The notes under the pieces are model-generated. The model saw only the letters and a program-made list of their open reading frames with translations. It did no database searches and was not told where the DNA came from. Position numbers and translations under genes: made by a program. A DNA stretch of 64,000 nt, from positions 63,421 through 127,420 of the forward strand of contig JAJFKJ010000053.1 in assembly GCA_021773275.1 (NCBI GenBank), written 5' to 3'. This document shows, piece by piece, positions 411-55,166 of this stretch (within the stretch, counting starts at the first letter, position 1; the number at the start of each line of letters is the position of its first letter). The DNA is from Gammaproteobacteria bacterium. GTDB lineage: Bacteria > Pseudomonadota > Gammaproteobacteria > JABCZS01.

Positions 411-455
411 GTAGGGGTCGCACCCTGTGCGACCCGAGTGCAGCGAAGCTGCAAC
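411..455. repeat. REP-like palindromic unit (GTAGGGGTCGCACCCTGTGCGACCCG) plus a small hairpin (TGCAGCGAAGCTGCA), immediately after a stop codon.
   Basis: A perfect 11-bp inverted repeat. The same unit recurs at 1961..1987 (inverted), 27613, 36324, 45614 and 54528. Confidence 0.85.
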
Positions 456-477
456 ATTAATCAACTAGGAAAATAGA

Positions 478-1872
478 ATGGGCCTACAAGAAAAAATTAC
501 CAACGCCATTGCCGACAGGCCTGATTTGCATGAAAAGCTAAGTGCCATTTACACAGGCATAAGTGATGCCAATAAATCTTGGTTTAATCAATCGCCCCTA
601 GACACTACAATGGCGCACATCAGAACAACACTTGATGCTATTACAGAGACTGGAACACAGATTGAAACTGCCTTTCCAAATACTGCCAGTGAAATTCGCA
701 GGGGTCTGCTTGAAAAACTAGATAGTATTAAATCAAAATTAGAAGAAGCCAAAAGCGCTGACAGTAGTAATAGGGAAAGTTTTGGTTTAAAACTGTCTGC
801 TGCTTTTAATTTTGTTAGAGATAGTCTTCCTTGGGCAACACAAACCAATGCTGACTTGAGAAAAGAACTTGGTATGCGCAAGCTGCATAAACTTAATAAA
901 ACTGAAGAAGCATTATTTGGTGATGATAAAGATAAACTTCAAGCTATTTATGATTTGACATTTGATATAAAGGATATTGATGGTCTAGAAGCACTTCTGG
1001 GTAAAGTAAATGCCAAAAAGGCTATCGGAGCTGTTGCAAACGACGCCAACGAGCCCGCCGCCATTGATCGTTTGCAAAACAACCTACATGCGCTTCAATT
1101 GCGCCAGGGTAAGAATGAGAAAAAACGGGATTATGTATTAAATTTTTTAAATCAACGGCTTTATCAATTAAAAACAGATGAAGTGCATGCGCAAGTCAAC
1201 GCTAACGCAGCAGGAATTATTGAGAGCTTGATGGTTGTGCGTGATAATGCAGCGCTCGCAATAGGAGCAAAAAACAACAGTGCGGAGCTAAATCAACTTG
1301 CTAAAAACGCTGTTGCAGCAGCAAGTGATGCTGTTACAAAAGCCAGCAAAAAAGGAAAAGCTTGGAGTGACTTAGTTAAAAAAATCACAGCAGTCAAAAC
1401 TGCAGCTAAAAGTGCCCAGGATAAGGCAGCCACAATAGAAGATACCGAAGAAAAAAAAGTGATTAGCGACCCCGACCCATTTGTTCATAAAGCATTTTTA
1501 GACACGTTGGAGGCTGCATATGCTGCCATAGTAAGCATGCTTGATGCTTTTCCTGCTGCAAAAAGTAACAAAGTAGACGCAGCTCGTGCTTTTCATGTAG
1601 AGGGAAAAACCAGTGCTCGCAACGCAAAAATCTTTGGTTATTGTTTCCTCTTACTTGCTGTCATTATAGCGGCAGCAGTAGGTATTCCAGCAGCCATGGG
1701 TGAAGACATTAATGATCTTCTGAATGATCTTGCATTGCCAGATGACGTGGATGCGGATGCCGATGGTCCATCGAATGCCACAGCGTTTACGATGTACCAA
1801 GCGCCAGGCGCAGACATATTGACAGAAGAAGTGGCGGAAGCTGCGCAATCAACATTGCAATTTCGAGTGTAA
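478..1872 (+). CDS. Hypothetical alpha-helical, coiled-coil-like protein with a C-terminal TM helix and a conserved acidic tail; candidate type IV secreted effector.
   Basis: A 464-aa ORF preceded by a GGAAAA RBS region. The C-terminus ATAFTMYQAPGADILTEEVAEAAQSTLQFRV is about 75% identical at DNA and protein level to the tail of the upstream truncated ORF. I recognise no enzymatic motif. Confidence 0.65.
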   Translation: MGLQEKITNAIADRPDLHEKLSAIYTGISDANKSWFNQSPLDTTMAHIRTTLDAITETGTQIETAFPNTASEIRRGLLEKLDSIKSKLEEAKSADSSNRESFGLKLSAAFNFVRDSLPWATQTNADLRKELGMRKLHKLNKTEEALFGDDKDKLQAIYDLTFDIKDIDGLEALLGKVNAKKAIGAVANDANEPAAIDRLQNNLHALQLRQGKNEKKRDYVLNFLNQRLYQLKTDEVHAQVNANAAGIIESLMVVRDNAALAIGAKNNSAELNQLAKNAVAAASDAVTKASKKGKAWSDLVKKITAVKTAAKSAQDKAATIEDTEEKKVISDPDPFVHKAFLDTLEAAYAAIVSMLDAFPAAKSNKVDAARAFHVEGKTSARNAKIFGYCFLLLAVIIAAAVGIPAAMGEDINDLLNDLALPDDVDADADGPSNATAFTMYQAPGADILTEEVAEAAQSTLQFRV

Positions 1873-53484: not shown

Positions 53485-53504
53485 TTTAATGTTACAATGT
53501 TGAG

Positions 53505-55166
53505 ATGAGCACACATAAACGTATTAAAATTTTATCGCCGATATTAGCCAACCAAATCGCGGCCGGTGAAGTGATCGAACGCCCGGCCTCGATCGTGAAA
53601 GAACTGGTGGAAAACAGTTTAGACGCCGGTGCAACGCACTTAAATATTCATCTTGAGCGCGGCGGCAAAAACCTCATCAAAGTGCACGATAATGGTTTAG
53701 GTGTTCACCCTGAAGATTTAAGCCTGGCTTTATCACGGCATGCGACCAGCAAAATTCATGCTCAAGCTGACTTGAGCCAAATTGAAACCTTAGGTTTTCG
53801 TGGTGAAGCGCTGGCCAGTATTGCATCGGTCGCCAAATTAAATATCACTTCAAAACACGGTGAGCATGAGGCGCAATCGGCGTCTGCTTCGGGCCGCGAT
53901 ATGCAGGTAGACATTAAACCTGCGGCACATCCACAGGGCACAACAGTTGAAGTTAAAAACTTGTTTTTTAATACGCCTGCAAGAAAGAAGTTTTTGAAAA
54001 GCGAACGCACCGAGTTTTTGCATGTGGAAGATATTGTGAAGCGCTTGGCTTTAGCCCGACACGATATCGCGATTGATTTTTATCATGATGGAAAGTTGGT
54101 AAAACGTTATGTGGCCGCAAAAGATTGCCCGCAAACACGTATTCAAGCCGGGCTTTCAAAACCCTTCATGGACGCAGCCATCAAAATTAATAACAGGGTC
54201 ACGCAAGTACGTTTGCAAGGCTGGGTAGGAAAACCCGAGTTTGCGCGCTCAAGCAATGACTATCAGTTTTTTTACGTAAATGGCCGCATGGTGCGCGACA
54301 AGGTTATTAATCATGCTGTGCGTTTGGCATACGAAGATAAAATTTACCCGGGGCGTTTTCCCGCTTATGTATTGTATTTAACATGCGAGCCTTCCGCTGT
54401 TGATGTGAATGTACACCCGACAAAACACGAAGTACGTTTTCGTGAGTCGCGTTTAATTCACGATTTTATTGCACAGAGTGTAGCAGACGTATTGGAATTT
54501 CCTGTAGACTCTTGTGTTGAACCTGCCGTAGGGGCGGCATTGCATGTTGCCCGCACGCCTGCAAACACGTGGCGTGATGTCGGCTTGACATCCGACAGGG
54601 TCGCATACAATGCGACCCCTACAATAGAACCTGCCGTAGGGGCCGAACAACATTCGACCCGAAATAATGACAGTATTTCATTTTTCGGCACGCCACTCAC
54701 GTTGCTGGCCAACAAAATTCTCATCACACAACAAAATGATGAACTATTTGCCATTGATTGGTTTAAAACCTTGAGCAACTATGCAGTAGCAACATGGCAG
54801 CAGGCGATCGAGCAACAAATCATCCCATTAACACCTTTGTTACTACCGCTTACTTTGCAAGAGCAAGAATACGGCGTGTATACCGATGCGCTGAAACAGC
54901 TCGGCTTTGAATTACAAATAATTGGCCCTGATCAAAGCATCTTGCGCGCGATCCCCCGCATATTGCAGGGCATGGATGTGCAGACAGCGCTACAGGGCTT
55001 GCAAGCCAGCAAACCCAAAGATCTGCAGCAATACTTTGCAAAGCACTGGGCTGCATCACAGTCTACAAGTTTGCGTGATATCGCTAGAACCTTGCAGGAT
55101 TGCTATGCGTTGTTAGGCAAATCTGGTGTCAAGCACAAGCTATATACCACGCAAAATCTATTATAG
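53505..55166 (+). CDS. mutL: DNA mismatch repair protein MutL; its interdomain linker carries an in-frame mosaic palindromic element.
   Basis: The N-terminal GHKL ATPase (ANQIAAGEVIERPASIVKELVENSLDAGA) and the C-terminal dimerisation region align with E. coli MutL. The linker residues EPAVGAALHVARTP...EPAVGAEQHSTRN are encoded by the repeat at 54519..54661. Confidence 0.9.
   Translation: MSTHKRIKILSPILANQIAAGEVIERPASIVKELVENSLDAGATHLNIHLERGGKNLIKVHDNGLGVHPEDLSLALSRHATSKIHAQADLSQIETLGFRGEALASIASVAKLNITSKHGEHEAQSASASGRDMQVDIKPAAHPQGTTVEVKNLFFNTPARKKFLKSERTEFLHVEDIVKRLALARHDIAIDFYHDGKLVKRYVAAKDCPQTRIQAGLSKPFMDAAIKINNRVTQVRLQGWVGKPEFARSSNDYQFFYVNGRMVRDKVINHAVRLAYEDKIYPGRFPAYVLYLTCEPSAVDVNVHPTKHEVRFRESRLIHDFIAQSVADVLEFPVDSCVEPAVGAALHVARTPANTWRDVGLTSDRVAYNATPTIEPAVGAEQHSTRNNDSISFFGTPLTLLANKILITQQNDELFAIDWFKTLSNYAVATWQQAIEQQIIPLTPLLLPLTLQEQEYGVYTDALKQLGFELQIIGPDQSILRAIPRILQGMDVQTALQGLQASKPKDLQQYFAKHWAASQSTSLRDIARTLQDCYALLGKSGVKHKLYTTQNLL
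54519..54661 (+). repeat. Mosaic palindromic element inside mutL (forward unit, two hairpins, inverted unit, second forward unit), bracketed by a 16-nt direct repeat GAACCTGCCGTAGGGG.
   Basis: GTAGGGGCGGCATTGCATGTTGCCCG at 54528, GGGTCGCATACAATGCGACCCCTAC ending at 54622, and GTAGGGGCCGAACAACATTCGACCCG at 54636..54661. The length of about 135 nt preserves the mutL frame with no stop codons. Confidence 0.85.

Follow-up and report, generated by a model that had tools for sequence, protein, structure and literature searches.

Twelve copies of a short palindromic repeat, here called family A, are distributed over 6 loci of a 64-kb stretch of gammaproteobacterial DNA (GenBank assembly GCA_021773275.1, contig JAJFKJ010000053.1, positions 63,421 to 127,420; hereafter the window, with positions counted from its first letter), and they very probably constitute a family of GTAG-tagged repetitive extragenic palindromic (REP) elements. 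We directly observed the anatomy of the units, the covariation of their stems, their excess over chance, their genomic locations, their presence or absence in relatives and their occurrence in other genomes.

Sequence reading, a hairpin-aware scan and a repeat finder (repeat families D1, D2, D10 and D14) contributed to the unit total, for which chance predicts no copies. The pattern GTAGGGGYSGMA-N5-9-TKCSRCCC matched exactly eight times in the window against 0.00 expected from shuffles, and the 10-mer head GTAGGGGYSG matched ten times against 0.12. These counts confirm the proposal of an earlier note, made from the sequence alone, that a 26-nt palindrome family is present here in many copies, and the positions listed in that note were all correct. 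Identity is high despite the distance between loci, with units 411 and 1987(-) agreeing at 26 of 26 positions and units 27613 and 54622(-) at 25 of 26. Comparison with Rfam, which the note had also proposed, yielded no match at the gathering score anywhere in the window.

Anatomy and classification of the repeat unit

All units share one plan: an unpaired (T)GTAG head, a 9-bp perfect stem, a 3-nt loop and a single nucleotide, followed by a second hairpin of 5-7 bp. Folding of the single-stranded DNA recovered this two-hairpin layout at every locus (z -4.0 to -7.6) and reproduced the hairpins originally described. The second hairpins, three of which present the loop context GC-GAA-GC, had been regarded as unrelated to the palindrome, whereas each adjoins its own REP unit and its type tracks the unit subtype. 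Modules of the TCGCA type carry a GYRYWGC-type second hairpin, and those of the CGGCA type a CACGAGC- or CAGGC-type one. At the level of individual stems, units with GGGTCGCA are followed by GCATYGC, GTGCAGC or CATCGC, and units with GGGCGGCA or GGGTGGCA by CACGAGC, CACGCC or CAGGC.

An alignment of 16 units from three genomes revealed pronounced covariation, with 96.3% of cells paired and compensatory changes in five of the nine stem pairs. None of 500 shuffles matched the covariation score, and shifting the partner by one to three columns reduced pairing to 15-44%. Conservation extends beyond the stem: the GTAG head is present in 11 of the 12 window units (the remaining one reads GTAT) and in all five outgroup units, columns 1-3 are invariant, and position -4 is T in 18 of 18 units. 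Among the 11 tabulated window units, position -5 is C in seven and position -8 is A in nine, and an upstream leader, A-W-C-C-T-R-Y-Y, is conserved from about 8 nt before GTAG, with CT at -5/-4. The hairpin is under selection, and conservation also covers the unpaired head and the upstream CT.

This 8-nt leader is the only general upstream feature. The longer left linker ACTTGCAACAATCCTGCTGTA, previously taken to be consistent across copies, occurs once exactly, once with three mismatches and a third time at ~79% similarity, and is not family-wide. The tie that it was thought to provide to a second palindromic repeat, family B, stands for two to three copies and fails for the rest of family A.

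The covariation bears on the idea that the units are not a repeat family at all, and act as double-stranded DNA operators of a dimeric regulator or as integron attC-like sites. Inverted 9-bp repeats about a 3-bp centre do have the geometry of a palindromic operator, and the composites, like attC sites, are found 3′ of genes. However, the compensating stem pairs (UA/CG, CG/GC and UA/CG) preserve pairing rather than sequence, which is unexpected for a site bound by protein as double-stranded DNA, and none of the units sits at a promoter: they follow genes or lie within a coding region. For attC, the R″/R′ cores (RYYYAAC...GTTRRRY) and an integrase are both missing, and the neighbours are housekeeping genes. 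We regard this explanation as extremely improbable.

Composite elements consist of two modules arranged tail to tail, 6-7 nt apart (spacers GTAATA, TGTAAC and AATTCCA), with their GTAG heads facing outward. In all four dimers of the window a TCGCA unit is joined by a partner of the CGGCA or TGGCA type at an inner distance of 41-43 nt; the stems of the two units diverge at two positions, the inner hairpins lack mutual complementarity, and the minimum-energy fold comprises four separate hairpins. With a length of 92-95 nt and inverted ends (GTAGGGG...CCCCTAC), these composites have the size and shape of miniature inverted-repeat transposable elements (MITEs), in which the REP units would serve as terminal inverted repeats moved by the DDE transposase of an insertion sequence. 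Yet no target-site duplications are found at 1895-1987, 27613-27705 or 36324-36415, which argues that family A is not a MITE. Moreover, one-ended single units are common (411, 45614 and 54636), the two ends of a composite are systematically different subtypes, each end is itself a GTAG-tagged palindrome, the signature of a REP, and the window revealed no transposase of any kind. A MITE nature thus appears highly unlikely. A clustered regularly interspaced short palindromic repeat (CRISPR) locus was ruled out by the irregular spacing and the lack of an array.

GTAG-tagged REPs are defined by a GTAG head, a short palindrome, inverted dimers and locations 3′ of genes (PMC3733652, PMC2817692). Family A displays a short stem-loop palindrome, an unpaired GTAG, inverted dimers whose spacing falls within the 1-100 bp usual for the superfamily, and a CT near the REP. 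It shares with the superfamily described in PMC3733652 an unpaired GTAG, a stem of 6-13 bp, a loop of 2-3 nt and G.T pairs; sub-families set apart by complementary stem changes; a predominance of dimers spaced 20-100 bp, in which GTAG marks the outer ends (called 'HH dimers' by Di Nocera et al.); in the window, positions between unidirectional or convergent open reading frames (ORFs), near their 3′ ends; and occasional in-frame copies, often in DNA-repair genes. Family A differs in that each unit carries a subtype-specific second hairpin, and its stem, GGGTCGCAY/RTGCGACCC, had no match in the published text and supplements on the superfamily. The GTAG head, the perfect short palindrome, the inverted dimers and the gene-3′ locations support the original description of a family resembling REPs and bacterial interspersed mosaic elements (BIMEs) with a unit unlike the enterobacterial one. 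Family A is not a new kind of element; it fits the existing GTAG-REP superfamily.

The SMAG/group 3 REPs of Stenotrophomonas maltophilia (PMC8266576), which combine GTAG with an 8-bp perfect palindrome and a 3-nt loop, have nearly the same design. In design, family A is closer to these perfect-palindrome Stenotrophomonas REPs than to the BIMEs of Escherichia coli, and its unit sequence is unrelated to the E. coli REPs listed in PMC2817692. BIMEs do share the head GTAG(G) and two unit subtypes (Y/Z) that alternate in orientation and are separated by short specific sequences, whereas family A has a perfect stem without the bulge needed by E. coli RayT, spacers of 6-7 nt that are too short for an integration host factor (IHF) site such as that of BIME-1, and no long tandem arrays. 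The REPINs of Pseudomonas fluorescens, reportedly described by Bertels and Rainey in 2011 as REP doublets forming hairpins, resemble family A in that inverted REP pairs are common and mobilisation by a REP-associated tyrosine transposase (RAYT) is presumed. In family A, by contrast, the units of a dimer belong to different subtypes, and the dimer forms four local hairpins instead of a single long hairpin; for this reason the family is not a REPIN in the strict sense.

REP-derived sequence in the MutL linker

Copies of family A were initially placed immediately 3′ of genes or between efp and epmA. Five of the six loci are indeed extragenic and lie between unidirectional or convergent ORFs, four of them 17-54 nt past a stop codon; the composite at 54528-54661, however, lies in frame inside the mutL ORF, and translation passes through this REP trimer without a stop codon. 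In the encoded protein, the ATPase and transducer regions span residues 25-330 (Pfam DNA_mis_repair, residues 216-330) and MutL_C spans residues 399-499. Residues 333-389 form the sole long low-confidence stretch of the AlphaFold model (predicted local distance difference test, pLDDT, <50), and the REP-coded residues 342-386 lie in this predicted disordered inter-domain linker.

The identical 553-aa MutL is also encoded by a second, independent assembly of these reads, which argues that the cluster is not a binning or assembly artefact. The gene mutL is outside the intragenic REP targets tabulated in PMC3733652, and a literature search on mutL, linker and palindromic repeats returned nothing relevant. 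The 9-mer GAACCTGCC occurs upstream of both plus-strand units of the trimer; considered as a target-site duplication, it was rejected because it matches the family's own upstream leader. The window also encodes a MutH homologue (4458-5126, minus strand; Pfam MutH, E 6e-31), which indicates that the host has methyl-directed mismatch repair of the MutHLS type, the context in which its REP-bearing MutL works.

Only two MutL relatives are close (66% and 69% identity); the rest share at most 54%, and named genera ~43%. We compared the mutL regions of the window (53505-55166; base composition of the window, 44% GC), of the syntenic relative L107 (MutL 66% identity; 10001-11800), of L108 (69%; 10001-11599) and of L113 (51%; 10001-11620). 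In L107, family A occupies the same linker site in the same frame, translated as ...EPN-VGAALYAAHGSHEMRPL..., in the form of a tight dimer and a degenerate third unit. The 168-bp (56-codon) block that holds this dimer and the third unit is duplicated there in tandem and in frame within mutL (11021-11072 and 11189-11240), which indicates that REP clusters in the MutL linker rearrange and are tolerated while they remain in frame.

Third codon positions of mutL are 44% identical between the window and L107, and yet the inner units agree completely in head and stems and the outer units are identical over their first 17 nt. This disparity implies maintenance or re-homogenisation of the REP sequence in mutL at the level of DNA. 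The two linkers are most simply explained by one ancestral insertion that was remodelled afterwards; independent insertions at one site are also conceivable.

The 21.6 kb of L108 contain no family A unit. Its MutL linker holds an inverted pair of a CGTC-headed palindrome, which also occurs at L108 4786-4836. The latter copy falls within the first 30 codons of a called amidase (AmiB-like) gene and represents either an N-terminal in-frame copy or a mis-called start. CGTC units are likewise present in the MutL linker of L113, the units of both linkers reading CGTCATTGCGAG...GCGAAGCAATCC, and a further MutL protein, P0009, contains three RHCEEVP repeats of the same origin. Translated REP-derived linker sequence occurs in all four lineages inspected at the DNA level, of GTAG type in the window and L107 and of CGTC type in L108 and L113, and at least 5 of the 20 closest MutL proteins contain recognisable REP-derived linker peptides.

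In-frame palindromes translated as extra peptides in intact housekeeping proteins are also a property of the Rickettsia palindromic elements (RPEs) and other intragenic REPs. RPEs have no sequence relation to the units described here, RPE-4 and RPE-6 being of CGTC type. The present case differs further in being confined to a predicted disordered inter-domain linker, with different REP superfamilies in related lineages.

Outside mutL, the spacer between efp and epmA carries a family A module in the window, whereas the corresponding spacer of L107 has none and contains family-B-type elements. This presence/absence pattern is as expected for a mobile or turnover-prone element.

Distribution in other genomes and the proposed mobilisation

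A genuine repeat family, as proposed in the earlier note, should not be confined to the window, and copies do occur elsewhere: L107 carries tight dimers of family A, L112 one dimer, and other genomes the core of the unit. When species-representative genomes were searched with the exact 20-nt core, GTAGGGGTCGCA-N5-TGCGACCC, at least 104 stretches from ~25 genomes matched, none of those listed coming from the genome of the window; the statements in this paragraph about core-bearing genomes refer to the matches listed. In these genomes the core is multicopy. Its hosts include Nitrospinota metagenome-assembled genomes (MAGs) and similar genomes of ~60% GC, with more than 35 stretches on one chromosome, as well as many Clostridia (26-33% GC), Geosporobacter ferrireducens, G. 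subterraneus, Anaerosolibacter and Acutalibacteraceae, and the full span is 26-67% GC. There, too, a TCGCA unit is usually followed by an inverted partner, which differs from TCGCA in 47 of 51 cases (CCGCA or TTGCA). At three loci (L040, L043 and L092) the core forms arrays with a period of ~555 bp.

A stricter pattern, requiring the REP and the second hairpin, recovered one contig from a metagenome scan, L112 (39% GC), with a full two-hairpin dimer. Viral contigs gave no match. A full-text literature search for the unit GTAGGGGTCGCA found no paper, and shorter fragments returned only unrelated primer matches.

RAYTs cleave at a CT dinucleotide adjoining the REP and use GTAG in site selection, and cleavage at CT has been demonstrated experimentally for other REPtrons (PMC8266576), the name given to a RAYT gene with REPs on its flanks. 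By analogy with these systems, we infer that family A is mobilised by a RAYT. Its units would be non-autonomous elements, recognised as folded single-stranded DNA by a RAYT of the HUH/Y1 type encoded elsewhere in the genome, which would take GTAG as its guide, cleave at the CT close by and rejoin the ends, as drawn from REPtron work (PMC2817692, PMC8266576). The CT at -5/-4 fits the mapped cleavage dinucleotide, and the conserved GTAG fits the guide role. Where copies land 3′ of genes, the host would tolerate them and transcribe them together with the gene, and hairpins of this kind can protect the 3′ ends of mRNA. One of the clusters would have landed in the disordered MutL linker, a flexible and presumably low-harm site, and we propose that the 45 translated REP residues persist in MutL because only in-frame states survive.

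The three single units all place their GTAG strand on the G-rich (+) strand, which is the leading strand by GC skew and hence the lagging-strand template. With n = 3 and gene orientation as a confounder, this placement is a weak hint of RAYT activity.

The position of five of the six loci, on the transcribed strand just past a coding region or in between two convergent genes, would also suit RNA elements selected by the host (mRNA 3′-end protectors, intercistronic attenuators or RNase processing signals) that spread by recombination or duplication and have no dedicated transposase now. Stems that covary and tolerate G.U pairs are compatible with such a role, as are the lack of a RAYT in the window and related DNA searched and the CGTC-type REPs reported without a dedicated transposase. 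However, the GTAG head and the T/CT at -4/-5 are conserved outside the hairpin, which a RAYT guide and cleavage site explains and RNA stability does not. The G.T wobble of unit 27705(-) lies on its GTAG strand, antisense to the local mRNA, a weak hint in favour of a DNA-level over an RNA-level reading. Recurrence of the 20-nt core across phyla of 26-67% GC, in turn, points to a sequence-specific protein partner. Taking both sides together, we consider the RNA-based explanation unlikely.

Several points nevertheless weigh against a RAYT-mobilised REP family. A phmmer search with E. coli RayT (MG1655) over all ORFs of 80 aa or more, from the window and from 105 loci, returned no match, a search for HUH and Y..NP motifs found none in the window or the related DNA searched, and Pfam assigned neither a Y1_Tnp domain nor a transposase of any kind to 30 window ORFs. 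A RAYT gene is likewise absent from L107, L108, L111, L113 and the 104 pattern-matched stretches searched; RAYT is normally a single gene per genome. Protection of mRNA 3′ ends by family A hairpins, a role borrowed from E. coli, is plausible, and intrinsic terminators were rejected as an identity for the hairpins, none of which is followed by a T-run at terminator distance. Units 411 and 1895 are possibly one old insertion copied by gene duplication, because both lie 3′ of paralogous gene ends. Finally, the copy density of 12 units in 64 kb is an estimate for the window only, and the 4 kb past its right end, covered by short-read contigs, contained no further unit.

Genomic context and biological significance

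The coordinates of the units, the modules and the host gene are collected in Table 1. Unit 411 begins 17 nt past the stop of ORF 53-394, and its module ends 25 nt ahead of ORF 478-1872. These two ORFs are tandem paralogues without a Pfam domain, their 3′ ends are 74% identical over 110 nt, and each is followed by a family A unit at an equivalent position. Units 411 and 1895 are two fully compensatory stem changes and one wobble apart. The dimer at 1895-1987 is flanked by two convergent ORFs, 478-1872 (+) and 2009-2443 (-), with 22-23 nt to either stop; the dimer at 36324-36415 lies 54 nt past the parC stop, and module 45610-45656 lies between efp (stop 45579) and epmA (start 45676).

The remaining dimer, at 27613-27705, falls within a 630-nt intergenic region 3′ of lysR (26253-27179), alongside two family B elements. 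Family B, the second palindromic repeat (CGCCCCCTTTTGTAAAGGGGGCAGCGAGCACCGCGAGCGGGGGATTTTATACTTGCAAYRATCYTG), occurs at 27332-27397, 27545-27610 and 38455-38497 of the window, with related elements at 2300-2440 of L107, and its 3′ motif TATACTTGCAAYRATCYTG has three occurrences against 0.16 expected. The intergenic interval 27180-27812 looks like a repeat 'nest': besides the family A dimer it holds two family B copies and CTTGCAATAATCTT motifs, no fewer than three palindromic repeat types in all.

Independent short-read contigs from the same sample, namely the Logan contigs L109 and L110 and the contig of L001, begin or end within family A units, at window positions 408, 1961-1974 and 36390. 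Family A palindromes fragment assemblies, which calls for caution with unit counts in MAGs.

Table 1. Family A units and modules in the window, with the mutL host gene
Feature	Position	Strand	Composition	Basis
REP unit, single	411-436	+		Sequence reading and hairpin scan
REP units, dimer	1895-1920; 1962-1987	+ (head GTAT); -		Sequence reading and hairpin scan
REP units, dimer	27613-27638; 27680-27705	+; -		Sequence reading and hairpin scan
REP units, dimer	36324-36349; 36390-36415	+; -		Sequence reading and hairpin scan
REP unit, single	45614-45639	+		Sequence reading and hairpin scan
REP units, trimer	54528-54553; 54597-54622; 54636-54661	+; -; +		Sequence reading and hairpin scan
Single module	407..453	+	Unit 411-436 (GTAG + GGGTCGCAC/ccT/GTGCGACCC + G); hairpin 439-453 (TGCAGC-GAA-GCTGCA)	DNA fold, -16.9 kcal/mol, z -5.9
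Inverted dimer, GTAG ends outside	1891..1987	.	CGGCA-like unit 1895-1920 (+, GTAT); hairpin 1921-1938 (CACGAGC); 6-nt spacer; hairpin 1945-1961 (CATCGC-TTC-GCGATG); TCGCA unit 1962-1987 (-)	Fold, z -7.6
Inverted dimer	27609..27705	.	TCGCA unit 27613-27638 (+); hairpin 27639-27655 (GCATTGC); spacer; hairpin 27662-27679 (CACGA..); CGGCA unit 27680-27705 (-)	
Inverted dimer	36320..36415	.	TCGAA-variant unit 36324-36349 (+); hairpin 36350-36366 (GCATCGC-GAA-GCGATGC); spacer; hairpin 36374-36387 (CAGGC); CGGCA unit 36390-36415 (-)	Fold, z -5.9
Single module	45610..45656	+	Unit 45614-45639; hairpin 45640-45656 (GTGCAGC-ATA-GCTGCAC)	
mutL coding sequence, 553 aa, host of the trimer	53505..55166	+		ORF and Pfam
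Intragenic REP trimer, in frame, mutL codons 339-386	54519..54661	.	CGGCA unit 54528-54553 (+, two G.T wobbles); hairpins 54554-54576 and 54578-54596; perfect TCGCA unit 54597-54622 (-); AATA; degenerate unit 54636-54661 (+)	ORF translation and folds

The REP class has been described since the 1980s and catalogued across eight phyla. Family A adds one lineage to it, from an uncultured group of Gammaproteobacteria; among named organisms, the nearest MutL relatives reach only ~43% identity. The kind of REP, the intragenic habit and the bias to repair genes are already published. New are the family A unit and the second hairpin that goes with its subtype; the host gene mutL, which the published table lacks; the presence of two REP superfamilies in the same linker of sister lineages, with maintenance at the nucleotide level; and the identical core in distant phyla. 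For annotation, the units explain assembly breaks and odd MutL peptide stretches, and they are usable as strain markers.

A bolder reading takes the core as one horizontally spreading RAYT/REP lineage with an unusually rigid substrate and, at the same time, the MutL linker as a recurrent, non-neutral site of REP landing or retention. The first part draws on an exact core that is multicopy at 44%, 26-33% and ~60% GC and is almost everywhere paired with a different unit type; the second draws on the GTAG-type units of two lineages and those of CGTC type in at least two others, on REP sequence far more conserved than synonymous sites, and on in-frame duplications. We regard this bolder reading as improbable. 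Under it, hairpin clusters in the linker could modulate mismatch repair, for example as hotspots of reversible in- and out-of-frame mutL rearrangement that act as a mutator switch. Should a matching RAYT clade be found, family A would be well suited to follow how the specificity of REPs moves from one genome to another.

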